From the IMG/VR virus record IMGVR_UViG_3300042453_003986, positions 14,042 through 78,041 of that record: a stretch of 64,000 nucleotides of DNA, one strand, 5' to 3'. The position numbers were made by a program, and so were the translations under genes. Under the pieces are notes generated by a model that saw only the letters and a program-made list of their open reading frames with translations, had not been told where the DNA came from and did no database searches. This DNA is from a virus. How positions within the stretch are numbered: the stretch's first letter is position 1; every line of letters starts with the position of its first letter. Of this stretch, positions 2,425 through 34,728 are shown in pieces.

Positions 2425-3016
2425 CGATTATCTCCTTAAACGCAGCTAACGTCAGGACATAGTATACCACAAAATCAATCACTAGCACCATTGGGTACTG
2501 AAGTGCTTTTGTCATGATGGTTCGATACAGCGGCACAGTCTTGATGGGCTTATTAAGCACAAAACGCGCCTCAGTCTTAAGAGCGTCTAGAGAACACACT
2601 TTGGCCAAATCAATTCCGCGAATAATCACAAAATCAGGAGTGTGATTATGGTAGTGGATAACGAGCACGCCAAATAAGGCACGCATCTGCTCGGCCTCTT
2701 GTTGAATTTTCTTCAGCCATAGCTTACTGATCTTGATGCAGGGCTGCCCCATTGCAAATTGCTCAGTAAGCTTACATTCTACTAAATAGCGTCCGGGACG
2801 TGTCGTAAACGGTACAACTACATCACCTTTAGACGCACCAGCCCCTGAAAGAGGCGTTCGATCCCCTGCTAAATACTTCGCTACTCTACGCTCCATCGCC
2901 TTTGACCGTTGCTTATTCAACCGGTTGCGCTCTCGCTTCTCTTCTTTGAGACGCTCAAGCGCAGCTGGTGACGTAATCGGTTTACTGACTGGAGGTGAAC
3001 TTTTGCGTTGGGCCAT
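2408..3016 (-). CDS. PD-(D/E)XK nuclease, Holliday-junction resolvase-like
   Basis: E(RRVAK)...SGAG..KGDV...LVECK pattern; replication context. Confidence 0.7.
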   Translation of the reverse strand: MAQRKSSPPVSKPITSPAALERLKEEKRERNRLNKQRSKAMERRVAKYLAGDRTPLSGAGASKGDVVVPFTTRPGRYLVECKLTEQFAMGQPCIKISKLWLKKIQQEAEQMRALFGVLVIHYHNHTPDFVIIRGIDLAKVCSLDALKTEARFVLNKPIKTVPLYRTIMTKALQYPMVLVIDFVVYYVLTLAAFKEIIDGEGG

Positions 3017-4178
3017 GAAAAATCACCGTACTTACGGCAAGTTTGCCGTTCCTATTCTTATGAAATCGTAAGTTAATCGCGCGATTGCCATTTGTGTCTG
3101 GAAACTCGTCGATAGGCGACATCTCGATAACAGTGTCAGCCACCTGAGATACTTCGCCCGAGTCACGCACGGCGTCAAGTCCTTCTCCACCCTTGTTCAT
3201 CTGCGAGAGGAGTACGACTGCCAAGTTGTGTTCCTTGGCAATCTCCTTAAGATGAACTGCAACTTCCCCCAAATCCTGATTACGGTTGCCGTTAGCGTGG
3301 TGCCTCACAATCTGGAGATAGTCCAGAAACACCACACGACACCCTTGCCGAGCAGCCGCGGCAATCTCCCGCCGGATAGTGTCCAGCGTCACCGTTGGGT
3401 CGTCAATGACAAACATCGGCAACGTCTGCAAGTAGATCACTACCTCTTCAATTCGTGCCGCAGCGGCGCGGTCTACCCGACCGAATTGAATAGCCGTAGC
3501 GTCCAGCGACAATAGGTATGCTACCCAGCGAGAAATTAGCTGCTCCTTCGACATCTCCAACGAGAAGAACAAACTGCGCGTCTGGTACTGCCGCGCCATT
3601 TCTAGCATAGACTGCCCAACCAAGGCAGTCTTGCCGGTGCCCGGCTTGGCCATGACGATGTTCAACGTCTTAGGCAGCCACTCACCGCCCAACAGCGAGT
3701 CAAGAAACCGAATGCCTGTACGCGTAAAAGAGTACGTACCGTCCAACTTCCGCCCAAGGTCGCCCAGCATGCGCTGAGCTCCGGGAATGAGCGTCGAGTC
3801 GTGCGTAGGAGAAACGGGGTCAAACGCCAAAACCTTCTCCACACGCCGCTCATCAGGCTCGTACTTCGTAGCCTCTGCGGCGAGTACGGTCGCTGCGTTG
3901 TGCAGCTGGCGCCGACGCGCTATACGTGCAAGCTCCTCCAGCAGGGCTCGCGATGAAGCAGTAGCAGGCACAAGCAGTTCTGGAGGAATCTGACCCGCGA
4001 ATGCGATGTGCAGAACCTCAAAACTTAGCTCACCGTAACGAACATAGGCTTCCTTTAAGGCCACAAAGTAGTGCTGCCGCTCCTCCGTAAACACAGCAGA
4101 GCTTACATTGTGCATAAGTTCTGGATTCTGGATAAACGAGGTAAGCAATCGCCACTCAGCTGCTTGATCTTGGTACAT
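2982..4178 (-). CDS. DnaB-like replicative helicase
   Basis: Walker A AKPGTGKT, FSLEMS, FLDYLQ, LSQMN, DSGEVSQVAD, KNRNG. Confidence 0.95.
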   Translation of the reverse strand: MYQDQAAEWRLLTSFIQNPELMHNVSSAVFTEERQHYFVALKEAYVRYGELSFEVLHIAFAGQIPPELLVPATASSRALLEELARIARRRQLHNAATVLAAEATKYEPDERRVEKVLAFDPVSPTHDSTLIPGAQRMLGDLGRKLDGTYSFTRTGIRFLDSLLGGEWLPKTLNIVMAKPGTGKTALVGQSMLEMARQYQTRSLFFSLEMSKEQLISRWVAYLLSLDATAIQFGRVDRAAAARIEEVVIYLQTLPMFVIDDPTVTLDTIRREIAAAARQGCRVVFLDYLQIVRHHANGNRNQDLGEVAVHLKEIAKEHNLAVVLLSQMNKGGEGLDAVRDSGEVSQVADTVIEMSPIDEFPDTNGNRAINLRFHKNRNGKLAVSTVIFHGPTQKFTSSQ

Positions 4179-5085
4179 AGCCGTGTCTCCTCATCAACAC
4201 TGCCCAATTAGTATAGGGCAGCGAATAACCTAAAAGCGACATAAACATCTTCGGACCCTTAGTCAGGATATAGGTGTCCACATCCATTTTACTCCCAGAA
4301 AGCGGTAAAAACAAGATGTTGCACTCTCCAAGGCGCTGGGCTAGCGTGTCAACAGCGGCGTACACATTCTCCGCAACTGCACGATCAGCCTGCGAATCAA
4401 ACATAATCACACGTGTCTGCTGCTGGTACAAACTACGCAATCGCCAGCGCCAAGTGTTGATTCCCGGAAGAGCTACAGCAGAAACGCCGATTTGCTGGCA
4501 CACTAGCGCCTTTATCTCCCCCTCAGTAATCACCACAGTCGCTCCAGTCGGTGGCCGCTGTCCCTGAGGCACATAGGGCCATTCATCTGCTCCACGAAAC
4601 GCCGCCCGTCCGTAGGGACCCTTATATCGTACTTCTGCCTCAGGATCGAGTGACCGCCCCCGTAAGTCGGTCACCTCGCCATCTGGGCTTATATAAGGGA
4701 AAATAATACGGCTCGCCAGCACAGAGCTTCCCCCGTTAGTTGCAATACCTGCATCGCGAGCAATGCTGTCTGTGTACAGCGGATGCGGCCCCGCGGGGCA
4801 GTACCCAATCTGATTCGCGTCAATAATACGGTCGGTAATCCCTCGCGTATGTAAGTATGCGCGAGCTTCTGGAGTAAGGCAGGCGTGGTAGTAGGCCGCG
4901 CACTGTCGATAATACTGTCGAATACCCGCCAGATTTTCTGACACCTTTAGGAGCTGGCCTACTGACTCATTACGAGCCCCTTTGGTGTAGCCGCAATTAA
5001 AACAATGCTCTACCCCGTTATCAGGGGTAACATACAAGTTGTGTCCGTCACACTCTGGACACGTCGCTTTGTATCCTCTTGCCAT
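4156..5085 (-). CDS. DNA primase (Zn finger + TOPRIM)
   Basis: CPEC...HCFNC zinc finger, YLHTRGI, RIIFP, GR, ITEGEIKA, FDS; adjacent to the helicase. Confidence 0.9.
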   Translation of the reverse strand: MARGYKATCPECDGHNLYVTPDNGVEHCFNCGYTKGARNESVGQLLKVSENLAGIRQYYRQCAAYYHACLTPEARAYLHTRGITDRIIDANQIGYCPAGPHPLYTDSIARDAGIATNGGSSVLASRIIFPYISPDGEVTDLRGRSLDPEAEVRYKGPYGRAAFRGADEWPYVPQGQRPPTGATVVITEGEIKALVCQQIGVSAVALPGINTWRWRLRSLYQQQTRVIMFDSQADRAVAENVYAAVDTLAQRLGECNILFLPLSGSKMDVDTYILTKGPKMFMSLLGYSLPYTNWAVLMRRHGYVPRSSS

Positions 5086-18857: not shown

Positions 18858-21800
18858 TTACTGAAGAATACCTTGCCCGCTAGGCATTGGAAAAGGGCGA
18901 TCCTTCGGTGGTTTAGCAGGACTTGTAGTGGACACCGTGTACACGCGCAATGCTTTTCCTTCGGGAGTATCCACGCTGTAAGCATCGAATGCAGTAGGAA
19001 CTTCCCGCGCATTAACCGACAGCTGCGCTTTAAGTGTCTTTGCTTCCGGAGTTTCGGTAGAACCGTACAGAGACAAGGCAAGTCGATTATTTGCGGCGCT
19101 TGCAAGGTTATTAGCTTCGTCAAAACGGCCTCTACTTATCAATCCTTCAACAGCAGTCATATCGTTAGTATACTGCATAATCGCAGCTACACCTTTAGCC
19201 ATAGTTGCCGGTACTTGTGTAGCGATTTCTGTAGCTGCATCAGTAAACGAGCGAACTAAATCATCTTTTTGTCTTGCAAGGTTAATCAGCGCATCTTCAA
19301 TTTGTTGCTTTAGTCCAATATTAAAATCTTCATATTGATTGATAAGACCACTCATTGTAGTACTTGTAGTTTCTTCAATGTTAACGTACCCTTGAGTCCA
19401 GAAGTCTGACCACAGCGGGGCAACGTCAATCATGTTCTGCAATTCTCGGTTAATCTGTTGAATCTCTTCACTTAATCGTTGCTGCTGTATGTTAAAGTCA
19501 GAAAGCGCCCTTGCAGCTTGCTGAATTTGCAAAGGATCTCCTGATTGTTGGGCAGCCTGCATATTCTGCACAAGACCTTGGTACTCAAGACCCGAGTAGC
19601 GCTGCTGACGCAACAAATCCTCTCTGCGTAAACGCAAAGCCTTTTCAGATTCAGCTCGCTGAATCATCGTGGCCACTTGCTGGTCTGCAAACTGCTGTGC
19701 CTGTGCACCGCGTTCTGGGTCTCGGCCAAGCAAAGCAGCCTGTGCTTGAAGATTTGCGCGAGTTTCCGGATCAGCAGTCTTCATTAGCTCAGTCATTTCG
19801 CTTACTACTTGATCTCGATATTTAATAACCTGTGCCCATGCGGCGTCTCGGCCAGCTAAATCAGTGATTGGCAAGCGGTCGTATGCGGTAAAGGCTTTTT
19901 CAAGCAAAGCAGTAGACTCGCTAGAATAGCGCCCTTGAAAGCGCAAAAACGCTGCTGGGTTGCTTTGCTCCGCTTGGTCCGCAAACTTCTTACCTGCTTG
20001 AGCTACTTGATCAATTTTTCGTCGGTCCGATTCAGCCATGTTAGCTGAACCAAGCTGACTGTAGTTTTGAGCAAGAGACTGTCGTTTACTCAACTCTCTT
20101 TGCTGTACCGCTTGCACCATTTGCCGTGTAGCGTTTAAATGGATTCCTTCAAGCTGACGAAACGCGTTTCTTGTAATATCCTCTAGCGAGCGGTTATGGT
20201 TAATGGCCAGATCGCGCATTTGCGTATTATGTTGAAAGTTTCGTTGAGCTAGCTCCGTCTGCGCTTGAATACCCATACTATACACGTTCATCAGTTCAGC
20301 AGGGTTCATTAGTGAAGTGATTGACGCATTACTCGCAATCATGTTTGCATACGCAAGACGGCCTCGAGGTCCTGACGTATAAGGTAGCTGCATTCCAGCT
20401 AGTCGGTCTGCTCCTCGAGCAACCCGCGGGTCAATAGGTTGAAAAGCTCGACGCATTTCGTAGTAGGGGATCTGTGCCAACTGCGCGCTGCTTGAAGCCT
20501 GCGGTAAAAACATTTGCTGACTAATCATAGAACGCCAATCAAGCCCGGAGATTCTGCGCATTTCGTTAAGAGCGAACAATGGGTCACCGTTAGACATGTA
20601 GTCGCGCAGTGTATTTGCTGCCGAACCTGCCCTGCTAAATCCGGCTACGTAGTTAGCAAAAGTAGTCTGAAAAGTTGAAACATATGGACCCATCAATTCA
20701 GCCATTGATTTGTTGTGCTTGCTAACTGCGTTAAACGTTTTAATGCTTTCTTCAACTGCATCATTAAGTGCAGACTTTGCGCCTTCATCAGCAAAACTTG
20801 TACGCATAAACTGCGAGTTCATGACCTGAGACGCACTAAGAGGCCCAGCCGAGCCAAACAATCCCATAGCATTGTTTAGTGCTGTTTGTTCAGCAAACGT
20901 ATTAAATCGTTGCTGCTTTCTTTGCAACTCTTGATCGAATTGCTGGTCCATATACTCTTTTGCTTGTACTTGATAAGTTGGATCATTTAGCAAGCGTTGA
21001 CGCATTGCGTCACTATAGGTTTTTATCTGCTCAGAAGTTAAAAAGCGCGCCATCTGTGTTGCGGTTAACTGCGTAGACACACCTTGAGCAGCTTGTGCAG
21101 CCTCTCGATAGTCTCTCCCAAGGACTGCAGGGCTTTCCAAAAGACCTAGCGCTTCTAATTGATTGTTGTTAAGCCCTAGCTCAGAAGGAGTAATGCCGAG
21201 TCCGTATTTTTGTGCTAACTGTATAATATCGGCATTGTCAATCAGTTCATTACCAACGCCTATCAAACGCTGCGATTCTTTACCAACCGCAGTGTCTCTT
21301 AAATTAGCGTCTTGAGCAAAAGCGAGAGACTGTGTAAGAGCTTCTGTAAGAGAAACCATCTCTGTTCCGTCGGGACTAAGCACCACAGTGCCTAGTATAC
21401 TTTTACCTTGCTCATCTTGTTGGTTGTACAGCTTTTCAATCGCGGTGGAGGCTTCGTCATAAGCAGCTTGCGTAAGTCCTGACGCAGCAAGGGCTTCTGA
21501 AATTTTGGTGTTGGGTATAAAACGACCGCGAGTTTTCTTAAGTTCATTGTTAATAAGTGTTTCGCGATTGCCCGAAAAACCTGCGTTTGCCAAGTAAACG
21601 GAGTCAAATTTATTTTGCATTCTTTGATTTTTTTCAAACTCTGTTTGCATTTTATACAGCTGTCGCATTTTTTCAACACTGACGTCGTTTAAGTCGATTG
21701 CTCGCGTAATTAAAGCGTACCCACCGGCTGCTACTCCGGCCCCGAGAGCTGCCAAGCCTGCAGTTCCTACAATTCCTGCGCCAGCTGCCGCAGAAGCAGC

Positions 21801-24800
21801 AGCGCTGCCTGCAAACATTTTACTACCAGCTAGCGCGCCTATTGTGGCATTGGTGAGCATACCGCCGCCGACCGCAGTGCCGACAGATCCCGCAGTACCT
21901 CCGATACCCCCAAAATAAGTCTGCATGTAGTATGCTCTCTTAACTTCATCAGATATAACCGGAAGTCCTCCAAGACCTGCTTTTGCAGCGGCTTCGTTTA
22001 CTACGCCAATGCCTTGATCAGCTACAAAACTAGCAAAGCTGTTGACTGCTTGGTTGTCAGTCATTGCTCCGGCAATACCTCGCGCGATAAGCTCTGAATT
22101 TATCATTTGCCCTTGTTCGTTGTAAACAACAGCTAGCGTACGTCCATACTTATCAAAACCCCCAGCCTCGTACGTAATGTTTTCATTCTCTCTTAAACCA
22201 ACTTCTACTGCTTTAGACATTGCCTTTATAGCTGCTTTTGATCCAGTTTCCGGTGCGTCAATTCCAACTAAACGCACTCGTTCTCCGCTAGTAGTACGGA
22301 ACGTATCTAAGTCAGTAACTTTACCTATTGTTGCTCTCTTTAACGAGGCGCCTGAGCGCGACGCACTCTCAACTCCCGACGCAATTAAACTACCAACAAG
22401 AAAAGTTGAAGGAGAAGCCAGCGCCGTAAGAATTCCCGGTCTAAATGCCCCGCCCGCTCCTCGTGCTACTTCGTCTATCATTGCTTTTTCAGCATCCGCC
22501 TTTAACTCTGTAAACCTGTCTGACTTAATCATTTGCTCGTAGCTCATGCGATTAGTGGGAAGAAGTTTGCGCTGATTTACAAACTCTTGGTAGGAAGCGT
22601 AGTCCCCACCCATGTCACGAGAAGCTTGCATAAGAGCTTGCTCAGTCGTCATGCCCTTAAACAGCCGATTAGCTTGAGCCATGTTTCGAAACTGAACGCG
22701 TTCTTCAGGTTTCATATTTTCTAAAAGACGGTACGGAGAAACTAAAGGAGTAACTCCAGTAGTTTTTTGGTAGCTTGCGGCTGCTAAGGCAATTTCGTCG
22801 TTAGCTTCCTGAAGTACTTTATCTACCTGCCGCGTAAAAGTAGACAAATCCGGAGCGTACATGTCTACGTCAGCAAGTTTAGAAAGTGCTTTTGAACCGG
22901 TAAACTTTAAACCTTCATCTCGCATTAGGTTAATGGTGCTGGTGTCGGCCATCTCACCTAAAACCGAACTAGGTCCTAGAATCGATTCTAACAAGGGTGT
23001 TGCAACTCCAACTGCAAACTCTGAAACTTTAATTCCCATCGTTTCGAGACGACCCAGCATTTTGTCGTACTGTGCAGCTCTTGAGTTTGCTGCTTCGTTA
23101 ATTAGTTGGTCAGTCACCCCCATTTGTGCAAGAACTTCATCTAGTTTATCCAGCATTTCAGTAGCGTTACCTATGTCAATTTTAGACAAGGCAGACCGGT
23201 TAATTTCAAACCTGCGTGAAAGCGACGCAACATTACCAGACAAGAACTCTTTAATAGCAATGCTCGCCCCCTCCATGCCTTGTGCAGGGTCAAAAGCCGC
23301 CAACTTTCGGGCTACGTTTACTACTTGACTGATGTCTACACCGTAAGCATTTGTAAGCGGAATAAACGAAGTAATATTGCCGATGTTAGACGTCAGGGAT
23401 CCTCCGAAAAGAGCCTGCTGTTCTGAAGCGGCAGCAACTGCCTTGTTAAACACTCCTTGATCACGCGACAAACCCCTAAGAGACGTCATACTTCGTACAG
23501 CGTTTAATGCCGGAGAAGCTGCTTGATCAATTATTCCAGCAATCGTACTGGGTAAACTTAACGCGCTCATCGCCGTCATACCAAGCGTTTGAATATCCCT
23601 GATGCGCGATGCGGCAAAAAACAATGGATCGGCAAAAGGAGTTTGGTTTCTTGTTTGCTGCGTGCGGCTCATCACGTTCTGCAGCTTTTGCAGTTCTTCG
23701 AGACCGATAGGTGCACCCGCGTTACCTAAGTCTTCTTGCAGACGCTTAAGGTCCTCGGCGCTAGCTTCAATAAGGTCAATTCTTCCACCATTTTCAGTAC
23801 GAGCTTGAAACCGCATTGAGCGATCATTGTACATAATGTCCGCGCCTGCTTGCCCAAATCTTTCTTGTGCGTACTCTTTAAGCAACCTTCGTTGAGTAGA
23901 ATCGCGCCGTAAACCAAAGAATCCCGGCCGACCTGCTGCCGCTTGTAGCTGCTCTTCCAGCACACTCATACGCTTACGTTCAGTAGCTTCAATAACTCCA
24001 GCAGTAGGTTTAATGTAGTCAGTCTGCGATGCTCTAGATGTAAATAAAGTCAGAGCGGACATTGCACTTTGTTTTTCCGCGTCAGTAAGTGTAGTACTTG
24101 CGGTAACTCGTTCTTGTAAATCAGCCGCAACTTTTGTTAGCTTTGCAAATGCAGTAGCTGCTTCAGTCAGGTTTGCGTCGTCAGCAGCTTGATTTAGCTG
24201 ATTTAACGCAGCTGTAAATTCACGGACATTATCTGGTTCTGCTGACGCAAGACCAGACACAACAGTACTTAGTGCATCAAGTTCAGTCGTGTCTCTTAAC
24301 GCGTCAACAGTGGTTTTAATTAACTCAGCGCGGCCTACAGCAAACGTCTGTCCGTTAAGCTCACCACCTGCAAGATCAAAAGCAGTTCGAGCTGATCCAA
24401 GAACACCTTTTGCAGTTAGCATTGCGTTTTTTCGAGACTCGTTGGCTACTATGTCTCGCTTTCGCTTGTCGGCTTCATCAACGCGTGCTGCTTCTCGAGC
24501 AGCTGCCTCATCTTCCCGTGCTTTGTTTCGCGCTGCGTTATCAATGGAAGTTTGATCTTTTGAAACAGCAGTCAACGTATAGTAACCCTGCTCTCGTGCA
24601 GATTGCACTGTGCGGTTTAACCCGTCTATTTCAGACTTAGCCGCTTTAGCCACATCTTCCGGAAGAGTCGACGTGTCTAAAGTGTCTACATACTGCTTAA
24701 CTAGCCCTGCTATTGCTTCTAGTCGACTACCGAAATTTGCTGCTACAGCGGCTTCGTTAGCAGGGTCGATCATCTCATCGATGGCCGATTTTAAAGCCAC

Positions 24801-27800
24801 TCGAGGTGCTTCAGCAGCGGTGCCCGCAGTGTACTTGTCAGTCTGCAAAACGTCTGACTGTATCAGTCTAAGCGACTCTTTAATAAAGTCGCTGGTTTGT
24901 TGCTTAAGCTGTTGCTGAGCAGCAGCATCATCAAGCCCCGCGAATTGTCCTCGGCGTTCTTGAAAGTTGTTGCGCAAAACGCTGAGTTCGTTTTCTCGTG
25001 CGAGTAATGCAGGGTTTTTGCCGTAGTAGCCGCCACCGCCTCCTCCTCCAAAACCACCACCGCCAAAAACTGCTCCGGGAGCAGATTGAATATTTTGCCG
25101 CGCAACTGAACCAGCGTGGTAATTTTCTATTGTAAGTGGAGAACGGCTTTTAGATGAAACAGCTTCTTTAGTAAGAATTTGCTTAACTTCAATAGACCCC
25201 AACGATGCACCTGAATGTAAACTTAAGTTTACATTTGTTGCGTTAATTGTAGCTTTTTCAATAGAAGCAACTTCTAGATTTCTAGCGTCTAAATTAGTAA
25301 TTGTTACAGGGCCGCTAAACTCAGCACCGCCACTAATTGTTGCAGAGACTGCTCCGCCACCGCCACCACTTCCGCTTCCGCTGCTTCCAGAACCTACGGA
25401 CTCGGCACTCTCGTGTTTTTTACGCGATTCTTTTCCTGAAGCTCGAGGTTTACGTGTTCTTGTGGAAGTTATCTCTCCGGCCATTTCGGCCACAGCTTTA
25501 TCGTCTAAAGTGGACTCTACTACAGTTACAGAAGATTCAGGTGTATCGGAAACACTAGCTACGGAGGGCTCGCTTACAGCTAATTTTTCTTCTTCATACG
25601 CTTCTTTTTTAGTGGTGATAAGCTCAAGCGCAGAAACAGCTTCGCTTTTTTCTGCAAAAGCCGCCTCTTTTTCTGCAGTTGCTGCAGTTACCACGGTCTC
25701 CATTTCTTTAAGTGTTTGCTCAGCCTTGCGTAAATTATCTTCCCCGTGCGCAACCTTTGCATTGATGCTGATTAACCTGCTGGGGTATTTTGCATATCTC
25801 CTAGTCATCCAATCTTTTATTTTTTGCACTCTAGCCACGTAGGCACTTGCATCGTTGACCGCTTGTTCTTGACGTTTTAGTTCTTCACTACTTTGGGTTG
25901 CTTTTTCTTCAGCAATACCTATTAACTCATCTGCGCGAAGCACCCTTTCTGCAGCGGCTCCCCTTTCCCCAGTCAACGTTGCTTTTGTTATGTCTACTCC
26001 AGAAACTTCTGCTGGTTTTCGCTCAGTACTCGGTCGAGCAGTTATTGTGGGTGCTGTCGCATCTGTCAAAGCACTTGCTAGGACAGCGGCTCCTGCTGCT
26101 GCGGGTGTAGTAACCTTATCCATGTCGCCATGTGCGGAGAACGATCCCCAGCGAGACAGCAAGCTTCTAAGAGCCGCCGGGTCTAAGCTCATATCTGCCG
26201 CACCTACTAAACTGCGAAGGTATGAAAACGCTTCAGTTGTATAGCGAGAAGCTCCTACACCAGCCGGTCCTTTTCCGACGACGCTACCAGCTACAGAGTT
26301 AAACAAGTTGTATACAGTGTCTAAACTACCATCAACACGGTAAGGATCAAACATCGAGGTAACTTTAGCGGCCTCGTCTTGCATTCTTCTTAATTCTTCA
26401 GGGCTTATTTCTGTGTCAAGCGTATGGCCGAACATAGCAAGCACGCTTTTTATGTAGTTTTGATCGGTAATCGGCCGATTCTCGCTGTCAAATAGCTGTA
26501 ACTCACCTTTTCCGCTTATACTCGCAGTTTTTAGTGCGTCTAATCTACGCGCATGTGCTAGCATGTATGCTAAGTTTGCTGAGGTTTGTTTTACTTTATC
26601 TGTTGCATATCCTCTACGAGCGGTAACTAACGGCTGAAGTAATTTCTTTTGCTCATCAGTCAGCTGCGACTGAGCAAAAAATCTTTTTAACATGTTTTTA
26701 GAAAACTGGTCGGCGTTGCTTTTTTGCTCTTGCTGCGCTTTTACCAGCTCGTGATACAAACGCACATTTAAATCAGTGTCGTAAGCAGCTTCGTGAAGCC
26801 GGGTAGGATCATACTCTAATCCAAACAGTGTAGCTAAACTTCCCAATGTGCGTGATCCGGGCAGCTGTAGCTCATTAGCCATCTGCAGCGTATCTACTGC
26901 TTGATTTTGTACGATTGTCGGCACATTTTCAGCACCGCCGAATAAAATAGGTAAGTCAAACTCTTTAATGTTATGCCCAACAATTGTTTTACCGCTTTCC
27001 GCCGATCGTTGAAGGCGACTTCGAGCTTTCTGTATTTCTTTGGCACTAAGAGCAGGTCCTTCTTTTGACCCCATAGTAGACTGAACTTCAGTTGCAAAAG
27101 CACCAGTCGCTGTTTTACCTCCACCGACTGAAGCAAACTCGAGAATTTGTGCAGTTTCTCCGGGTTTCGGTATAGTAGTTTCTAGGTCAAACCCTACAAC
27201 GTCGATTACTGCTGCAATTCCCGCATCTATAGTATCTCGTCTTTCTTTACGTGCTGCATCTTCTCTGTCTCGCTGTTTTTTAATCACGTTATCTAGCTCA
27301 TCTTGCTTTTTTTTAGTTAACTCATCGTTTTTGTCTCGTCTTTCTTTACGTGCTGCATCTTCTCTGTCTCGCTGTTTTTTAATCACGTTATCTAGCTCAT
27401 CTTGCTTTTTTTTATCTAACTCATCTATATTATCTCGTCTTTCTTTACGTGCTGCGTCTGGCTCGTCTCGTCTTTCTTTACGTGCTGCATCTTCGCTGTC
27501 TCGTTGTTCTTTAAGCGCTGCGTCTTCTTTATCTCGTTGGCTTTTAATTGCCGCGTCTAGCTCATCTTGCTTTTTTTTATTTAACTCATCGTTTTTGTCT
27601 CGTCTTTCTTTAATTTCTGCGTCTGACTCGTCTTGCTGTTCTTCTGCGGCTAAGCGCGAAACTAAAGCGTCTCCCACTTGTTTTTGTATTTTTTGGGCTT
27701 GACTTACTGTGCGGTTCATCTCCTCCTTGGATGCCTGTGCTTTTTGATAGTCTTCCAGTGTTCCCCCGAAAAGGTGGACTTCTCCTACTATTTTTGATGC

Positions 27801-30800
27801 AGCATCGTATTGCTTGTCAAGCTGATCGAGCTCTGCTAGAGCGCTTTCTACTTCAGGCGGAATTTCTTCTCCTATATAAAACCTTTTTAGGTATTCTGCA
27901 AAGTAGTGTGGATTGGCCCATGTTGTTTGTATGTCTTCGCCCGAGGCCTGTACTTCTAGTGCTAGTGCTTTCATTTTACTTTTTTCTTTACGTGCTGCAT
28001 CTTCTCTGTCTCGATATTCTTTAAGTGCAGCTTTTCTTTCGTCTCGTTTTTCTTTACGTGCTGCGTCTTCTTCGTCGCGTCTTTCTTTAATTTCTGCATC
28101 TTCTTTATCTCGTTGGCTTTTAAGTGCTGGTTCTTCTTTATCTCGGTATTCTCTAAGTGCAGCTTCTCTTTCGTCTCGTCTTTCTTTACGTGCCGCGTCT
28201 TCTTCGTCGCGTCTTTTTTTAATTTCTGCATCTTCTCTATCTCGGTATTCTCTAATCGCTGCTTCTTTTCTGTCTCGTCTTTCTTTACGTGCTGCATCTT
28301 CTTCGTCTCGTCTTTTTTTAATTGCTTTATCTAGCTCGTCTTGCTTTTGTTTAGTTGCAGCAGTTCTGCCGCTTGTTGAGGCTGCAGAAGTGCCACTTCT
28401 TCTTTTATCAGCGGCAACTTCTGCCGCAGCTATTTGCACTGCGTCAGTAATTTGCGCTTCTTGCATTCCTTTACCAATTTCACTCGTAGCTAAAGCTAAG
28501 CCCGGGTTTGTTTCTTCCTGAAGTACTGCAATAGCTTCGTTAATAATTGCACGGTCCGCAGCGGGCAAACTTGCAATAGCCCGATCTAGAGCTCTGCCTG
28601 AAGTTCGCGGGTTCATTATCATAGCAAGCGCTTGGAAAGAAGCGGGATCAGTTAGTTCCGCAATTGAAGCAAGCAAGTTACGGATGCGCACATCTTTTGC
28701 AATCATTTCTGGTTTGTCACCAGTCAGGTTGTAGTCTTGCGGCAAACTTGCGTACAAAATCTTTAAAAAGTCAACAAGCGGTTCAGCACTAGGTTGATTG
28801 GTTACTAATTGATGAGCTTTGCGTATTTGTGCGTTTCGCTCGTACTTTCGGTATTGCGAATAGTCTGCCTGCTCTTGCATAGTAAGGCTATCGCCGCGAC
28901 TTTTCTTTGCTTGTAGCATTTGAAGTGCACGTCTGTTTTCAGCCTCGTCAAAATTCTCTGGTAAAGCGTAGTCGCTTTCTCTAGCTCTTTGGAGGTAAGA
29001 AGCAAGTGCCTGCGTAGTAAACTCACGGTCTGCTTCTGTAGGACCCACAGCTTCTTGCTCGGCCATGTCTTGCTTTAGCAACAACGTATCAAATAAAGCA
29101 TTCATTTTTTCATCGTCATAGTCAAGGTCAAAGCGCAGTTGCTGATAAAGAGGAGACGAAGTAATAAGACGAGTCAGCAGGCGTGCTGCTTGCGGACTGC
29201 TAGTTTCTTTCCTTTGCCTGTACAACCCTAACAACGAATCTTTAGGGTTAATGTTCAACTGTGAATAAAGATACTGCCTTCTTCTAAACAAGCTAGTGCG
29301 CAGTCTTTCTGCAGCTACGCGCGAAACTAACGCGTCTCCCGCTTGTCTAGGTATTTTTGCAGCTTGAGCTTTTAAGCTTTCAATCTGCTGGTCGATTGTT
29401 TTTAAAGCAGTGTTTACTACCTGTGGATCTTCTTGCTCCGCTTCTTTTTCTAGTTGCATTAAGTAGCTTATTTTAGCGTGATAGTCTGCATCTGCAGGAA
29501 CAGTGCCCGCACGAGCTGCTTCTCGCAAATCTGCTAACTCTCTTCTAATTTTTTCTAAACGAACAGGAGCAGCAGAAGCCGCTATGCTTTTTCTTTCCTG
29601 TAATTTAGCTTCAACCTGCTCTTGAAGCTGTGCTAACTCTGTTTGAGCGCTTTCTAGTTCAGGTGGAATTTCTTTTCCTGTAAAAGACTGACTTAATGCT
29701 GTCGCGATGTCTTTTGGTTCTGTACCCTCTACTCTCGCAACCCATTCGTTTGGTAGTTTATAGTAGTCAATGCCTACTACAGGGTAAGATACTGATCTTT
29801 TTGTATCATCCCTTTTTTCTTCTGCAAGTTTTTTGCTATGCTTGAGAAGCCCGGTGTAGTGTTGGCGTTGAATCTCACCCAGTGCGTACTGCCTTTCATG
29901 TTCTATCGACTTTGCGTTGATTTCGGCTTGTCCGAGCTCGAGCTTAAGTGGCTGAAGGTCCATAGAGACGTTAAACTTGTCGTAGTCTGTTTCTGTATCT
30001 TGGCCCTCTCTATTTTCTATAGCTGCTATCTGGGTTTTAAGACTTTGTATTTTTTCGTTAACTGGAGAAATTTCTTCATCTGCTGCTTTATTGACTTGAT
30101 CTTTTTTCTTTTTTGCTTGAGTTTCTATTTCGTTTATTTCGGTTTCATACGCGTTTATTTCAGCTTCTAGCTTTAGTATGTCTTCTTTAGCGGACTGGAC
30201 TTCCCAAGACGTGCTCGAGTCCTTAGGAAGCTCAGCAAGTTGTTTTTGAGCTGCTTTAGAAGCTTCTGCGGCACTGTACGACGTGTCACCAAACAATAAA
30301 GTGTCTAAATCAAACGCAGAGCGACGGTATGTTTGATCAGAAACCTCAACGCTACGTACCATTCGTGCAAGTGGCGTACCTTTAATAACTTCTTCAACAA
30401 AGTCGTCAACTGCGTAAGAATCACGCATTTCTGCTTGAGGATCAAAGCTAAGGGCTCCTTGTGCTTCAAATCCTTCTGAAGCTCGTCCGTAGAAAACCGA
30501 GCTTTCTTGTGCGTACTGAGCCGCGCGGATTCTTCGCTCTTTTTCCAACTCTAAAAACTTATCGTATTTACCTCGTTCTTCTTCAGTAAGCGTCTCTGCT
30601 CTTTTAAATATTTGCTCTGCCAGCTTCTCTTTTTCTTTACTGTCGGTTTCATAAAAAGCTCGATTATGTAATTGCTGCAGCTCTGCAGGTATGGCACTTT
30701 CCGCATCTTGGTATTCTATTTTTCGCCGCATGCGTGCGAGAAAATCGTCAGTACCGAAACCCTCGTCAAGACCTACATCAGAAAACCTGTATTTATTAAA

Positions 30801-33800
30801 GGCTTCTTCACGAATAGCCAGCTCAGTGCCTAGCTGAGCTCTTTGTTGACTAGATAAGTCATCTCTGCTTAACTGAGCGCGCAACCGCTCAATAGGTGCC
30901 ATTGGTCGTTCTTCGTCATCTATAGCAAGTTTTGTGCGCTTAATTTGGTCCTCAAGGTAGGTAATTGACGCTTGAGTAGCGCCGTTTACGCGCAACACGG
31001 CCAATTGATCTTGTAAGTTTCGCAGCTCGAGCAGTCGTTTTTGCTTTTGAGCTGTCCGGCGTTCAGGGAAAACACCTACTGCTTGCCGAAGCTGCTCACC
31101 AGCTGCCTGTGCGACTGGATACCGCTGCTGCGCCAGCTCTTCAATAGTTAATGGAGCTTGCTCTTGTTGTCTGCGGACTTCAGCTAATTGATCTTGTGTG
31201 CCAAGTATAGCTGCCATGAAGTCTAACGGAGATTCAGCCATCTCAGCCGCCGAAGCGCCGCTGGCTAAATACGTTAAACCTTGTACAAATGTATTATTTG
31301 GGTTGTTTAGTTCCTCTGCAGAGAGCATTTTATACGTTTTTGACAGCTGTAAAAACTCAGGTGCCACTGTGTCTGATTCTAATATTTTACGAGCTTCTTC
31401 AGGAGAACCTACGCCAAGCACACCGCTAGCATACTGCGTGTATGCTGCTTGCAGCATTGGGGAAATAGCCTGAAGAATACCGCGCATTCTTTCCACAGTA
31501 GAATCTTTTTTAGAAGCCGCCGCAAGACCCTCTCGTGCACGAGAACTGTTCAACACTTGTGCAATACCGGGTGCTACTTTAGCAATTTCTTCAAGTAAAA
31601 AAGGCACTTCTTTAGCAGGCACTGAAGACAGTGATTTCACGATACCTAGCAACGGCAAGTCTCGGCGGCCTACGTCGGTCATCGCATAAAAAAGTGTTTG
31701 CAGGTTATTTAAAGTCATCTGCGGATTTGTTGCGTAAGCTTCCCGAGCTCGCGTAACGTCAAAATTCCCGCTCTCGTCTAAATAAGCACTGGCAATTTGC
31801 GCGGCGGGTAGACTTCCTCCAGCAGAACCTCTCTGCACACCTAGTCCAAAGTAATCAGAAAAAAACTCTAGAGCGGCATACGGTTGGCCTCCAGCTGTGC
31901 GCTCTCGAGCACGCTCAAATCCTTCTATACCCAATCCTTTAATTTTTGCGATTGGGTCGGCTGTTCTCCCGTCCTCTGAGGTGTAACCCGCCAGTGCATT
32001 TTCAAGGTACACTGCGCTGCTTTGCGTTTCGTAAGGACGTTCTCTTCCCGCTAATCCTTGTTCTTGAAGATTTTGAAGCAGACCAGCTGCATAGTCTACA
32101 ATTTCTGGTGCTGCCGCAGGAAACGGAGTAAAAACGTGACTTCCATACAGTGTCGCTAAAGCAGTGTCGATGCTAATACCCTCTCCTGACTGCACTCCGG
32201 TGACAAGGTAAGCGCGCTCTTGTGGGCTGGTCTCGCTTGATGTTATTTTTCTTACAAAGGCTATTTGGTTTTTTACCTCTCGAGCACGATGGTTTAACAA
32301 CGCTCGAGATTCGCCGCTAGCTGCCTGTACAGCCTCTCTTTCAAGTTTTACACTCTGTCGTTCTAAATCCTCTAAAAGGCGCTGTATAAACAATTGAGCA
32401 GGAGTAATTTCAGTGTCCTTTGAAGATTCTCCAAAAAGCTGTGCAACAAATTCTTCTGGATCCGCACTTACATCTCCGTTTTGTACATAATTATTGATAA
32501 GTTCCGCTGCGTACAGGTTACTGACTTGCTGCACTCCTCCAGCGCCGCCAAACATGCTTGTAAACGACTTTCCAGTAATTCCACCACCGAGCACGCCCGA
32601 ATATGTAGAGGCTCTTTTTGTAGCTTGCACAGCTGGAGCAAACTGCTCTGCAAGAGCGCGAGGTAGCTGCACTGCTTTACCTCCAACGGAAACAGTTACT
32701 ACGTCTTTTTTCTCGATCTGCTCTTGTACTATTTTTCTTAACTGGGTAGTAGCAGCTTCTGCACTAAGAAGAAACTGAGTCGGAAAAACTGCACTACTTT
32801 GGAATCCAGTAATTTGAGAGCCTACTTTAGTGTCAATACCCTGTGCTTCTTGCCTGTATCGTCTACGCGGATTTAAGTTTTGAACAAACGATTCTATTGC
32901 CCTAAATGTGCTAGAAAATCGCTGAGTAATTGCAGAATTTACTTCGTCAGTATGGTCTGTATCGGTGGAGAGGTACACTGTTGCTCGTCCGTCGTCAGAC
33001 AAGATGTCCTCGAGTCCCACTTTTAACGTCTGCTCAACTTGGTTCACGCCTTGAGGAGGGAGAGTCCGTCCAGCTGCAGTCAATCGTTTAGTGTTTACGA
33101 CTGCTTGACGTAGGATTTTACGAAGCCGGTTTCCTACATTTTCTGTAAGCTTGACTACTGCACTGGCCGTTCCTCCAACTAGCTGTGGAGCTGTCATTCC
33201 CCCGCCCTCTAAAGCATAGCCGATTGAAGAAAGCATTGTCGAAGCTATTTGTTTTAACAGTGCAGAAATTTGCTCTTGTACATCTTTTTCGTCAGGCGCT
33301 TCTTTAAACGTTTCTTTAATCGCATTTTTAAGCACTGTTAAGTCTGCCGTTGCTACTGCTTTGTACAAGGAAGGCTGCTCTGCTTCAGGTACTGTAGTTA
33401 AGTAATCTTTCAACAATGCGGCAAACGTTTCATAGTCTTTAGAACTATTTCGCAAGCTTGGAGAAAACCCAAAAACGCGCCTAAACAAAGAGTTGTCTAT
33501 TGAAAAGTTGGAAGGACGTTCCGAATAAATAAGCGGGACTGGTCTTTCTGCGGGCGCATCAGTGCTTTCCGTTTCTTTATAAAACCGACTGCGTCTGCTT
33601 GACGGTGCTGTAGATTCGGTTGGTCGTTCGGTGATTCTACGCGTGTCGGTTACCTCGCTCATCGAAGAAGCAGCCGTTTTTAAATCTCGCGTTACAGCCT
33701 GCACCATACTTTGGATAGTTCTAAGAGTATCCGCACGATCAGCTGGTGTAATAGCGTTGTTTCGAACGTCGTCCACAAACTGCTCTAACGCAAAAACAGC

Positions 33801-33983
33801 GAGAGTTACACGCTCTTGAAAATCTGATCCCAAACGCGCTGTCGGGTTTACTCGCTTAGCCTCAGCACCAAAATCTGCAGAAACACCAGACAGTGCGCTT
33901 TTAGCTTCCTCTGAATTTTTTTCAACAGCCGTAAGCAAGTTTACGATTTGCGTTAATTGACTAATTGTTTCTTCCATAATCAC
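18858..33983 (-). CDS. Giant tape-measure-like protein (5041 aa) with DEDDh exonuclease and thermonuclease domains
   Basis: Follows major tail and chaperone genes; helical and Ala/Gln-rich; TMP-like motif AFDPAQGMEGASIAIKEFLSGN..SLSRRF; embedded nuclease motifs. Confidence 0.85.
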   Translation of the reverse strand: MIMEETISQLTQIVNLLTAVEKNSEEAKSALSGVSADFGAEAKRVNPTARLGSDFQERVTLAVFALEQFVDDVRNNAITPADRADTLRTIQSMVQAVTRDLKTAASSMSEVTDTRRITERPTESTAPSSRRSRFYKETESTDAPAERPVPLIYSERPSNFSIDNSLFRRVFGFSPSLRNSSKDYETFAALLKDYLTTVPEAEQPSLYKAVATADLTVLKNAIKETFKEAPDEKDVQEQISALLKQIASTMLSSIGYALEGGGMTAPQLVGGTASAVVKLTENVGNRLRKILRQAVVNTKRLTAAGRTLPPQGVNQVEQTLKVGLEDILSDDGRATVYLSTDTDHTDEVNSAITQRFSSTFRAIESFVQNLNPRRRYRQEAQGIDTKVGSQITGFQSSAVFPTQFLLSAEAATTQLRKIVQEQIEKKDVVTVSVGGKAVQLPRALAEQFAPAVQATKRASTYSGVLGGGITGKSFTSMFGGAGGVQQVSNLYAAELINNYVQNGDVSADPEEFVAQLFGESSKDTEITPAQLFIQRLLEDLERQSVKLEREAVQAASGESRALLNHRAREVKNQIAFVRKITSSETSPQERAYLVTGVQSGEGISIDTALATLYGSHVFTPFPAAAPEIVDYAAGLLQNLQEQGLAGRERPYETQSSAVYLENALAGYTSEDGRTADPIAKIKGLGIEGFERARERTAGGQPYAALEFFSDYFGLGVQRGSAGGSLPAAQIASAYLDESGNFDVTRAREAYATNPQMTLNNLQTLFYAMTDVGRRDLPLLGIVKSLSSVPAKEVPFLLEEIAKVAPGIAQVLNSSRAREGLAAASKKDSTVERMRGILQAISPMLQAAYTQYASGVLGVGSPEEARKILESDTVAPEFLQLSKTYKMLSAEELNNPNNTFVQGLTYLASGASAAEMAESPLDFMAAILGTQDQLAEVRRQQEQAPLTIEELAQQRYPVAQAAGEQLRQAVGVFPERRTAQKQKRLLELRNLQDQLAVLRVNGATQASITYLEDQIKRTKLAIDDEERPMAPIERLRAQLSRDDLSSQQRAQLGTELAIREEAFNKYRFSDVGLDEGFGTDDFLARMRRKIEYQDAESAIPAELQQLHNRAFYETDSKEKEKLAEQIFKRAETLTEEERGKYDKFLELEKERRIRAAQYAQESSVFYGRASEGFEAQGALSFDPQAEMRDSYAVDDFVEEVIKGTPLARMVRSVEVSDQTYRRSAFDLDTLLFGDTSYSAAEASKAAQKQLAELPKDSSTSWEVQSAKEDILKLEAEINAYETEINEIETQAKKKKDQVNKAADEEISPVNEKIQSLKTQIAAIENREGQDTETDYDKFNVSMDLQPLKLELGQAEINAKSIEHERQYALGEIQRQHYTGLLKHSKKLAEEKRDDTKRSVSYPVVGIDYYKLPNEWVARVEGTEPKDIATALSQSFTGKEIPPELESAQTELAQLQEQVEAKLQERKSIAASAAPVRLEKIRRELADLREAARAGTVPADADYHAKISYLMQLEKEAEQEDPQVVNTALKTIDQQIESLKAQAAKIPRQAGDALVSRVAAERLRTSLFRRRQYLYSQLNINPKDSLLGLYRQRKETSSPQAARLLTRLITSSPLYQQLRFDLDYDDEKMNALFDTLLLKQDMAEQEAVGPTEADREFTTQALASYLQRARESDYALPENFDEAENRRALQMLQAKKSRGDSLTMQEQADYSQYRKYERNAQIRKAHQLVTNQPSAEPLVDFLKILYASLPQDYNLTGDKPEMIAKDVRIRNLLASIAELTDPASFQALAMIMNPRTSGRALDRAIASLPAADRAIINEAIAVLQEETNPGLALATSEIGKGMQEAQITDAVQIAAAEVAADKRRSGTSAASTSGRTAATKQKQDELDKAIKKRRDEEDAARKERRDRKEAAIREYRDREDAEIKKRRDEEDAARKERRDEREAALREYRDKEEPALKSQRDKEDAEIKERRDEEDAARKEKRDERKAALKEYRDREDAARKEKSKMKALALEVQASGEDIQTTWANPHYFAEYLKRFYIGEEIPPEVESALAELDQLDKQYDAASKIVGEVHLFGGTLEDYQKAQASKEEMNRTVSQAQKIQKQVGDALVSRLAAEEQQDESDAEIKERRDKNDELNKKKQDELDAAIKSQRDKEDAALKEQRDSEDAARKERRDEPDAARKERRDNIDELDKKKQDELDNVIKKQRDREDAARKERRDKNDELTKKKQDELDNVIKKQRDREDAARKERRDTIDAGIAAVIDVVGFDLETTIPKPGETAQILEFASVGGGKTATGAFATEVQSTMGSKEGPALSAKEIQKARSRLQRSAESGKTIVGHNIKEFDLPILFGGAENVPTIVQNQAVDTLQMANELQLPGSRTLGSLATLFGLEYDPTRLHEAAYDTDLNVRLYHELVKAQQEQKSNADQFSKNMLKRFFAQSQLTDEQKKLLQPLVTARRGYATDKVKQTSANLAYMLAHARRLDALKTASISGKGELQLFDSENRPITDQNYIKSVLAMFGHTLDTEISPEELRRMQDEAAKVTSMFDPYRVDGSLDTVYNLFNSVAGSVVGKGPAGVGASRYTTEAFSYLRSLVGAADMSLDPAALRSLLSRWGSFSAHGDMDKVTTPAAAGAAVLASALTDATAPTITARPSTERKPAEVSGVDITKATLTGERGAAAERVLRADELIGIAEEKATQSSEELKRQEQAVNDASAYVARVQKIKDWMTRRYAKYPSRLISINAKVAHGEDNLRKAEQTLKEMETVVTAATAEKEAAFAEKSEAVSALELITTKKEAYEEEKLAVSEPSVASVSDTPESSVTVVESTLDDKAVAEMAGEITSTRTRKPRASGKESRKKHESAESVGSGSSGSGSGGGGGAVSATISGGAEFSGPVTITNLDARNLEVASIEKATINATNVNLSLHSGASLGSIEVKQILTKEAVSSKSRSPLTIENYHAGSVARQNIQSAPGAVFGGGGFGGGGGGGYYGKNPALLARENELSVLRNNFQERRGQFAGLDDAAAQQQLKQQTSDFIKESLRLIQSDVLQTDKYTAGTAAEAPRVALKSAIDEMIDPANEAAVAANFGSRLEAIAGLVKQYVDTLDTSTLPEDVAKAAKSEIDGLNRTVQSAREQGYYTLTAVSKDQTSIDNAARNKAREDEAAAREAARVDEADKRKRDIVANESRKNAMLTAKGVLGSARTAFDLAGGELNGQTFAVGRAELIKTTVDALRDTTELDALSTVVSGLASAEPDNVREFTAALNQLNQAADDANLTEAATAFAKLTKVAADLQERVTASTTLTDAEKQSAMSALTLFTSRASQTDYIKPTAGVIEATERKRMSVLEEQLQAAAGRPGFFGLRRDSTQRRLLKEYAQERFGQAGADIMYNDRSMRFQARTENGGRIDLIEASAEDLKRLQEDLGNAGAPIGLEELQKLQNVMSRTQQTRNQTPFADPLFFAASRIRDIQTLGMTAMSALSLPSTIAGIIDQAASPALNAVRSMTSLRGLSRDQGVFNKAVAAASEQQALFGGSLTSNIGNITSFIPLTNAYGVDISQVVNVARKLAAFDPAQGMEGASIAIKEFLSGNVASLSRRFEINRSALSKIDIGNATEMLDKLDEVLAQMGVTDQLINEAANSRAAQYDKMLGRLETMGIKVSEFAVGVATPLLESILGPSSVLGEMADTSTINLMRDEGLKFTGSKALSKLADVDMYAPDLSTFTRQVDKVLQEANDEIALAAASYQKTTGVTPLVSPYRLLENMKPEERVQFRNMAQANRLFKGMTTEQALMQASRDMGGDYASYQEFVNQRKLLPTNRMSYEQMIKSDRFTELKADAEKAMIDEVARGAGGAFRPGILTALASPSTFLVGSLIASGVESASRSGASLKRATIGKVTDLDTFRTTSGERVRLVGIDAPETGSKAAIKAMSKAVEVGLRENENITYEAGGFDKYGRTLAVVYNEQGQMINSELIARGIAGAMTDNQAVNSFASFVADQGIGVVNEAAAKAGLGGLPVISDEVKRAYYMQTYFGGIGGTAGSVGTAVGGGMLTNATIGALAGSKMFAGSAAASAAAGAGIVGTAGLAALGAGVAAGGYALITRAIDLNDVSVEKMRQLYKMQTEFEKNQRMQNKFDSVYLANAGFSGNRETLINNELKKTRGRFIPNTKISEALAASGLTQAAYDEASTAIEKLYNQQDEQGKSILGTVVLSPDGTEMVSLTEALTQSLAFAQDANLRDTAVGKESQRLIGVGNELIDNADIIQLAQKYGLGITPSELGLNNNQLEALGLLESPAVLGRDYREAAQAAQGVSTQLTATQMARFLTSEQIKTYSDAMRQRLLNDPTYQVQAKEYMDQQFDQELQRKQQRFNTFAEQTALNNAMGLFGSAGPLSASQVMNSQFMRTSFADEGAKSALNDAVEESIKTFNAVSKHNKSMAELMGPYVSTFQTTFANYVAGFSRAGSAANTLRDYMSNGDPLFALNEMRRISGLDWRSMISQQMFLPQASSSAQLAQIPYYEMRRAFQPIDPRVARGADRLAGMQLPYTSGPRGRLAYANMIASNASITSLMNPAELMNVYSMGIQAQTELAQRNFQHNTQMRDLAINHNRSLEDITRNAFRQLEGIHLNATRQMVQAVQQRELSKRQSLAQNYSQLGSANMAESDRRKIDQVAQAGKKFADQAEQSNPAAFLRFQGRYSSESTALLEKAFTAYDRLPITDLAGRDAAWAQVIKYRDQVVSEMTELMKTADPETRANLQAQAALLGRDPERGAQAQQFADQQVATMIQRAESEKALRLRREDLLRQQRYSGLEYQGLVQNMQAAQQSGDPLQIQQAARALSDFNIQQQRLSEEIQQINRELQNMIDVAPLWSDFWTQGYVNIEETTSTTMSGLINQYEDFNIGLKQQIEDALINLARQKDDLVRSFTDAATEIATQVPATMAKGVAAIMQYTNDMTAVEGLISRGRFDEANNLASAANNRLALSLYGSTETPEAKTLKAQLSVNAREVPTAFDAYSVDTPEGKALRVYTVSTTSPAKPPKDRPFPMPSGQGILQ
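27230..28350 (-). repeat. 33-nt (11-aa) tandem charged repeats inside the giant protein
   Basis: Units such as DEEDAARKERR, DREDAEIKKRR and DERKAALKEYR; recurring nucleotide string tctcgtctttctttacgtgctgc. Confidence 0.9.
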
Positions 33984-34358
33984 CTACATAAATAATTTAA
34001 AAATTTGCTCTTCTGTTTCAAGAGCCTTTTTCTCGAGCTTCTCTAGCTCTTTTTCTTTTCGCCGAATGCTCGACTGGATAGCATGCGCTTTTGCTGAAAT
34101 TAGTGCGGCCATTTCTATATAGGTCACCAGTCCTACACGTTTAATGTGTAGAACTGATAGCTGTCCAGTTGAAAGAAAATGATCAATCCACAGTGCAAGT
34201 TCTTCTTTTGTTGCCTTAGCTTGGAGAACTAGTAGATGAATCCCTTTCCTTTTCGATAGCGGAGGTAAGATCGGCATCCTTCTGAAGTGCTTCGACAAAC
34301 TTGTCGAATTCGCCTTTGCTAATCTTCCCGATTGTCCAAATCTGCTCGCCAAGCTCAC
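33984..34358 (-). CDS. Second tail assembly chaperone ORF (possible frameshift extension)
   Basis: Overlaps the 3' end of the chaperone ORF in another frame, has no convincing start of its own, and abuts the tape measure start. Confidence 0.45.
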   Translation of the reverse strand: MSLASRFGQSGRLAKANSTSLSKHFRRMPILPPLSKRKGIHLLVLQAKATKEELALWIDHFLSTGQLSVLHIKRVGLVTYIEMAALISAKAHAIQSSIRRKEKELEKLEKKALETEEQIFKLFM

Positions 34359-34650
34359 GCACTACCTCCCCGTTAACGTCAAGCAGTCGACGTGCTTGCG
34401 AGATCGTCAGTTTTGGCCGAACGATGCCCTCCACCAGCGTATGCAAAGTAAACTCTGTATTATCAAGTTCACCGCTCTTAGTCGCCTGCTGGTTGATCTT
34501 TTCCATTTGTGCAAAAGTCAACGCGCGAATACGCACGCGCTTCTGCAATCCCCGAATAACGACATCTAGCTCGTTCGGTGCCGCCGCCTGTTCGAGTTCG
34601 TCGATACTCTCAAAATAGTCAGCGTTTGTGCCGACTGCAAAGTCAATCAT
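34216..34650 (-). CDS. Tail assembly chaperone
   Basis: Between major tail and tape measure; VRIRALT..GIVRPKLT motif; ATG 34650 after GGAGG. Confidence 0.7.
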   Translation of the reverse strand: MIDFAVGTNADYFESIDELEQAAAPNELDVVIRGLQKRVRIRALTFAQMEKINQQATKSGELDNTEFTLHTLVEGIVRPKLTISQARRLLDVNGEVVRELGEQIWTIGKISKGEFDKFVEALQKDADLTSAIEKERDSSTSSPS

Positions 34651-34665
34651 TGAAACCTCCATAAC

Positions 34666-34728
34666 AAAAAAAGTTCCCTCTACATAATAACACAAACTGT
34701 AATTGTTTGCTCATGTAGAGGGAACTTT
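34666..34728 (-). terminator. Terminator/attenuator after major tail gene
   Basis: 16-bp IR AAAGTTCCCTCTACAT/ATGTAGAGGGAACTTT followed by a T tract on the minus strand. Confidence 0.6.

Follow-up and report, generated by a model that had tools for sequence, protein, structure and literature searches.

Tail tape measure proteins fill the lumen of the phage tail and are expelled from it ahead of the DNA, and to our knowledge the enzymatic cargos known from them are cell-wall hydrolases. Reportedly, tape measures with enzymatic domains include that of mycobacteriophage TM4, which bears an Rpf-like motif, pb2 of T5, which bears a peptidase, and a set of SLT-bearing proteins. Here we examine a window of 64,000 nucleotides, positions 14042-78041 of the 78,041-bp virus record IMGVR_UViG_3300042453_003986 of IMG/VR, which carries terminal repeats, is complete by CheckV and derives from an uncultured freshwater phage of ~78 kb. 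Its minus strand encodes, in a single uninterrupted frame, a giant open reading frame (ORF) of 5,041 residues, very probably a tape measure protein by its sequence and setting, and in the middle of this protein lies a DEDDh (DnaQ-like) 3'-5' exonuclease domain with an intact set of catalytic residues (Table 1). In the TM4, T5 and SLT types the catalytic domain likewise lies inside the tape, presumably leaves the tail with it to work during entry, and belongs to a gene that follows the chaperone; the window protein differs from them in having two nucleases, the DEDDh domain and a Staphylococcal-nuclease (SNase) domain, and no muralytic domain was found in it in Pfam scans.

An exonuclease in such a protein is not unique to the window phage, because a Chaseviridae protein in the tape-measure position carries one of the YqaJ/lambda-exonuclease type. 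This protein, gp62 of the cultured coliphage phiEcoM-GJ1 (L008:13232-16951), contains the YqaJ/lambda-exonuclease domain at residues 459-591 (E=3.8e-11) in addition to an SLT domain, and is labeled in its record merely as a 'virion structural protein'. As in the window phage, the exonuclease occupies the middle of the protein and the gene follows that for a tail assembly chaperone, but its fold is unrelated (PD-(D/E)XK, acting 5'-3'), the phage has a contractile tail and the protein numbers only 1,239 residues. A preliminary description of the window had regarded nucleases as unusual cargo for tape measures. This is fair for the literature searched, which yielded no description of any tape measure bearing a domain of the DEDDh, SNase or YqaJ kind, the phiEcoM-GJ1 gp62 type included, but it has to be qualified by the Chaseviridae proteins. 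Enzymatic cargo of tape measures is covered for the enterococcal phages in PMC10194240. Among GenBank phages, no tape measure gene was matched by either the exonuclease or the SNase query. As far as we could find, the DEDDh type, its pairing with an SNase domain and the giant modular protein that holds them are new.

Three further systems invite comparison. The tape measure of the Thermus phages P74-26 and P23-45 (5,006 residues; ~80-kb genome) is similar in size to the window protein, has no cysteine and occupies an equal gene position; it contains no exonuclease domain, its record annotating a metallopeptidase domain instead, and no sequence similarity is detectable between the window giant and the P74-26 tape measure. 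The tail of P74-26 is nearly 1 µm long (~0.9 µm; PMC10034513). The polyvalent proteins (Iyer et al. 2017, PMC5512222) are large polypeptides that combine several effector enzymes and are presumed to accompany the DNA into the host; their published account makes no mention of tape measures or of DnaQ or SNase domains, and their hallmark processing peptidase (MPTase) is absent from the window protein, where two nuclease domains are present. Finally, the DnaQ-like DEDDh enzymes themselves (Pol III epsilon, ExoX, ExoI, RNase T and TREX1/2) have in common with the phage domain both the fold (Z of 13-15) and the ExoI, ExoII and ExoIII motifs with H-x4-D. The phage domain is, however, neither a free enzyme nor a polymerase subunit, being embedded at residue ~2260 of a predicted virion protein of 5,041 residues.

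The three Exo motifs occur in the giant ORF just where the preliminary description had placed them, with all five catalytic residues present, and the H-x4-D arrangement of ExoIII assigns the domain to the DEDDh type. Pfam recovers RNase_T (PF00929) over residues ~2263-2410 with 34 bits against a gathering score of 24 (E=5.4e-8), the match spanning model positions 1-164 of 164, and PHROG 192 ('DNA polymerase exonuclease subunit') matches the same segment at 2.4e-11. The equivalog score of NCBIfam is not reached, TIGR01406 (dnaQ_proteo) giving 25.7 bits against a cut-off of 222.7, and a phmmer search of PDB sequences with the exonuclease segment returned nothing at E<=0.01; the relationship to known structures emerged through the fold search. 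An AlphaFold2 model of residues 2240-2440, computed from an alignment that took in 15 stand-alone exonucleases, has a mean pLDDT (predicted local distance difference test) of 87 and a pTM (predicted template modeling score) of 0.81. Foldseek relates this model to RNase T, to TREX1/2 and to the proofreading exonuclease domains of polymerases at probability 1.0, and VIA-align superposes it on Pol III epsilon (2gui) with Z=14.9 and a root-mean-square deviation of 2.8 Å over 145 residues, with Z of ~14 for ExoI, ExoX, the exonuclease domain of DinG and RNase T. The DnaQ-like fold that had been put forward from the motifs is thus borne out by the model. A longer prediction covering residues 2238-2720 adds a small element after the exonuclease and no confident second domain, the adjoining sequence being modeled as low-confidence helix. 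Sequence and predicted structure together confirm the segment as a DnaQ-like DEDDh domain with all five catalytic residues, at a level of agreement far beyond chance.

A survey of homologues, which the preliminary description had named as a check, found the domain with intact catalytic residues in every giant examined. The protein collections hold P0003 (5,151 residues), P0004 (5,621), P0005 (4,355) and P0006 (4,382), along with the more distant P0008 (5,424) and P0009 (5,665), and a metagenome scan adds L006 (the locus of P0008), L007 (with a giant of at least 5,158 residues) and L004/L005 (a circular contig of 76.6 kb). In nine giant homologues the gene is likewise uninterrupted, with products of 4,355-5,665 residues, and the longest of the phage contigs involved measures 94 kb. 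All five active-site residues (D, E, D, H and D) are invariant in the window protein, P0003, P0004, P0005, P0006, P0008, P0009, L007 and L004, as are the HN of ExoII and a DT motif across the giant homologues, at a domain identity of 35-60% (minimum ~35%); the catalytic residues are also invariant with respect to 13-15 stand-alone exonucleases. In P0008, P0009 and L007 an insertion of ~50 residues follows ExoI.

When identity is read in 100-residue windows along a whole-length alignment of the giants (6,729 columns), the window with ExoII and ExoIII shows 53% identity to P0005, against 0-36% in its flanks, and 38% to P0008, against 15-29%. The exonuclease thereby stands out as the best-conserved part of a middle region that is otherwise variable and rich in repeats; in P0005 and P0006 the flanking charged repeats are gone and the exonuclease is kept. 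A library of 1.84 billion representative proteins yielded only other giants at E<1e-30, the best stand-alone exonuclease matching at 3e-10, and the segment had no relatives by tblastn in GenBank phages or by a pattern scan of IMG/VR. Selection was judged by conservation at the protein level, the closest DNA pair in the exonuclease region having ~70% nucleotide identity. We take this pattern as purifying selection on the catalytic domain, which would make it a stable part of the giant-protein family. Given a complete two-metal active site and purifying selection, the domain is most likely catalytically competent. Two large unannotated metagenome proteins, P0021 (3,016 residues) and P0019 (1,954 residues), also contain an internal RNase_T-type domain; they were dropped as members of the giant tape-measure family, as they resemble it in no other respect and show no link to tape measures.

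The giant ORF had been called a tape measure in the preliminary description, and it very probably is one, on account of its position after a chaperone-like ORF, a core homologous to annotated tape measures and its hendecad repeats. A tblastn search with residues 3300-3800 matched 18 GenBank phage records, in all of them within genes that carry the annotation tail length tape measure protein (best E=7e-11). The core responsible is 75-99% identical among the giants and recurs at residues ~140-340 of many proteins of ~1,000 residues, among them P0058, which Pfam TMP_3 (PF20155) and PHROGs 1533, 2335, 339 and 1538 identify as a tape measure protein. The chaperone-like ORF directly upstream of the giant gene has two matches, both weak, namely Phage_TAC_5 (E=7e-4, below the Pfam cut-off) and the XkdN-like PHROG 389 (4.9e-4). 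The genes run in the order tail-completion-like ORF, 144-residue ORF, chaperone-like ORF, overlapping ORF and giant gene, and the overlapping ORF may be the extension of the chaperone. Four ORFs of 568-1,168 residues lie downstream of the giant gene, and the final one resembles a tail fibre. With no sheath-sized gene found, the tail is probably non-contractile. In the 78-kb genome, TMP_3 produces two weak hits of 12 bits (E=0.005 genome-wide), both in the N-terminus of the giant ORF, and no others. The ESM Atlas returned tape-measure clusters at a sub-threshold score of 0.86, which we took as a lead only.

Several observations count against this assignment. Five pieces of the giant protein of 1,000 residues each, and smaller pieces, match no tape-measure family of Pfam or PHROG at E<=0.01 and none of NCBIfam significantly, and PF10145 has no match in the protein. 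With the profiles below significance, family membership rests on BLAST-level homology of a core of ~180 residues and on synteny. Furthermore, no canonical -1 slippery heptamer was seen in the 143-nt overlap at the chaperone gene, and the frame of that overlap is +1 and not the usual -1.

The second nuclease of the protein, the SNase domain, is recognized by Pfam PF00565 (E=2.1e-10; 41.5 bits against a cut-off of 21) and by the NCBIfam thermonuclease model NucI (5.4e-9), and hydrophobic segments lie on both of its sides.

Table 1. Features of the giant gene and its upstream neighbours, in window coordinates; aa, amino acid residues
Feature	Position	Strand	Basis
Giant ORF, 5,041 aa, read as tail tape measure protein (very probable)	18858..33983	-	single uninterrupted frame
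DEDDh (DnaQ-like) 3'-5' exonuclease domain, aa ~2258-2415	26739..27212	-	Pfam, AlphaFold2, Foldseek, VIA-align
ExoI motif VVGFDLETT, aa 2262-2270; catalytic D2264 and E2266	27174..27200	-	motif location
ExoII motif IVGHNIKEFDL, aa 2334-2344; H2337, N2338, catalytic D2343	26952..26984	-	motif location
ExoIII motif RLHEAAYD, aa 2395-2402; H2397-x4-D2402	26778..26801	-	motif location
Charged tandem repeats, 11 residues (33 nt), just N-terminal to exonuclease	27224..27633	-	Tandem Repeats Finder
Second array of charged 11-residue repeats (33 nt)	27981..28362	-	Tandem Repeats Finder
Conserved tape-measure core, aa ~3534-3716	22836..23384	-	tblastn; 75-99% identity among giants
Staphylococcal-nuclease (SNase) domain	22059..22280	-	Pfam PF00565, NCBIfam
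Hydrophobic segment, N-terminal side of SNase, aa 3849-3872	22368..22439	-	Kyte-Doolittle, 19-residue window, maximum 1.6
Gly/Ala-rich hydrophobic segments, C-terminal side of SNase, aa 4056-4097	21693..21818	-	Kyte-Doolittle scan
124-aa ORF overlapping chaperone gene in +1 frame, ending at giant-gene start	33984..34358	-	ORF reading
Tail-assembly-chaperone-like ORF, 159 aa, directly upstream of giant gene	34216..34695	-	weak profile matches

The charged repeats that the preliminary description had noted just upstream of the exonuclease are real and form two arrays (Table 1), and the giant ORF can start at GTG 33983 or at ATG 33977. Its 5,041 residues include no cysteine, against a mean of 0.58% in the other ORFs of the phage, and the probability of this arising by chance in a protein of that length is ~2e-13. 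Cysteine is likewise absent from P0003-P0006, P0008 and P0009, the six giants that were checked, and from the unrelated P74-26 tape measure, and this shared lack adds to the case for a tape measure.

In light of the above, we propose that the exonuclease is delivered with the tape measure at infection and is active in the host, a proposal drawn from sequence and from analogy with other tape measures that we consider an even call. By that analogy, about three copies would be held in the tail lumen in an extended, non-native state; in the work on TM4, enzymatic motifs in tape measures are said to count as length and hence to be stored non-natively. The tape measure would then be expelled ahead of the DNA and regain its fold in the envelope or the cytoplasm of the host, where the exonuclease could begin to trim nucleic acid at free 3'-OH ends as soon as infection starts. 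Were all 5,041 residues to measure the tail, a tail of ~0.75 µm would be predicted. As to substrates, the preliminary description had named host nucleic acid, phage DNA ends and the signaling oligonucleotides of defence systems. The ends of host DNA or RNA and of the phage DNA continue as candidates, but cyclic defence signals are unlikely, because DEDDh exonucleases require a free 3'-OH end and cyclic signaling nucleotides have none. The likeliest substrates would be DNA or RNA of the host or of a competitor, which would give the enzyme an anti-host or anti-defence function, with the ends of the phage's own genome a close second; we regard the former as somewhat more likely.

Three points weigh against this delivery scheme. 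The tail lumen is ~4 nm wide, and three folded domains of 20 kDa at one level would be too big for it, so that unfolded or extended storage, as proposed here, becomes a necessity. SNase yields 3'-phosphate ends, which DEDDh enzymes generally cannot use, and a simple relay from endonuclease to exonuclease between the two domains is therefore unlikely. Lastly, the phage is uncultured, and we infer alike the presence of the protein in the virion, its ejection, its refolding, its activity and its substrate.

That the enzyme instead serves the incoming phage genome, resecting its 3' strands (for example at terminal repeats) so that exposed complementary strands could support annealing, circularization or recombination-dependent replication, or else trimming damaged ends, is in our estimate unlikely, though it fares best among the alternatives. 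The genome record has direct terminal repeats by its IMG/VR class; repeated contig ends, however, usually reflect an assembly that closes into a circle and not physical repeats in the virion. The closest structural relatives of the domain, Pol III epsilon, ExoI and ExoX, act on DNA, and the unrelated 5'-3' YqaJ/lambda-exonuclease-type enzyme of the Chaseviridae suggests convergence on the processing of DNA ends at entry. Set against this is the location of the domain, which at residue 2260 of 5,041 lies in mid-protein, away from the N-terminal end, which adjoins the head and would be closest to the DNA end.

The modular build of the giant protein bears on a different question, namely whether the exonuclease travels in the tail at all. 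Shorter relatives of 1,600-2,760 residues align only to residues ~2970-5030 of the giant, and they possess the SNase and lack the exonuclease. The giant thus appears, from these alignments, to consist of an ordinary C-terminal module (~2,070 residues, with the core, the SNase and the hydrophobic segments) and a clade-specific N-terminal extension of ~2,900 residues. From its N-terminus, the extension comprises a conserved module (residues 1-1230), a variable region of coiled and charged repeats, the exonuclease, a conserved helical stretch and Gly-rich linkers; helical or charged repeat sequence makes up most of it, and the DEDDh domain is its one compact element. No shorter homologues were found for the N-terminal module, searched with residues 300-1230. 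The giant gene of the 76.6-kb contig JACCEC013131957.1 (L004:190-10520 and L005:1-4550) is a mosaic: its first ~2,460 residues, exonuclease included, are 68-78% identical to P0005 and P0006, and its last 1,515 residues 99% identical to P0003 and P0004. This indicates recombination inside the giant gene near the variable Gly-rich linker (residues ~2460-2985), each half thus behaving as a module that can be exchanged. In P0004, residues ~141-470 form an insertion of ~330 residues with an HExxH zinc-peptidase-like motif, which is absent from the window protein and the other relatives.

One could accordingly picture the N-terminal 2,900 residues, exonuclease included, being cleaved off, serving within a polyprotein inside the cell that makes the phage, or being packed elsewhere in the particle, with the C-terminal 2,070 residues alone measuring the tail. 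The shorter relatives amount to the C-terminal module on its own, the two halves recombine independently at the linker, and the N-terminal module, having no stand-alone shorter homologues, would always be made fused. We find this quite doubtful, and less probable than action on the phage's own ends. The sole TMP_3 hits of the genome, weak as they are, fall at the extreme N-terminus, and the extension holds the hendecad repeats typical of tape sequences. Moreover, the 5,041-residue window protein contains no peptidase domain, no HExxH motif and no match to a peptidase family, which bears as well on the release by proteolysis that the preliminary description had suggested. Size is no objection to a full-length tape either, since the 5,006-residue tape measure and long tail of P74-26 are documented (PMC10034513).

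Least probable of all is that the domain is non-catalytic, serving as a spacer, as a module for folding or plugging or as a handle that binds nucleic-acid ends, with motifs that hold a metal or a 3' end without turnover: tape measures do accept many inserted segments, the family varies widely in length and the sequence adjoining the domain is low-confidence helix, but in a pure spacer one would expect the five catalytic residues and the HN and DT motifs, which are invariant among the divergent giants, to be lost, and the domain is the best-conserved part of its region.

Delivery of the exonuclease with the tape measure would have consequences for the earliest stage of infection. Tape measures are the first phage molecules into the host, and an active exonuclease within one would mean that ready-made nucleic-acid enzymes enter ahead of the DNA. 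This bears on the survival and processing of incoming genomes at entry and on counter-defence before phage genes are expressed, and it raises the structural question of how a globular enzyme is stored in so narrow a tail lumen. More tentatively, a family of ~80-kb freshwater phages may deliver by way of the tape measure a payload of two nucleases, the DEDDh enzyme and a membrane-flanked SNase, that acts before phage gene expression. If true, such a payload would destroy the nucleic acids of the host, of competitors or of defence systems, or would process the ends of the entering genome, and together with the YqaJ-bearing proteins of the Chaseviridae it would represent an unrecognized class of virion-delivered nuclease effectors housed in the tail lumen.

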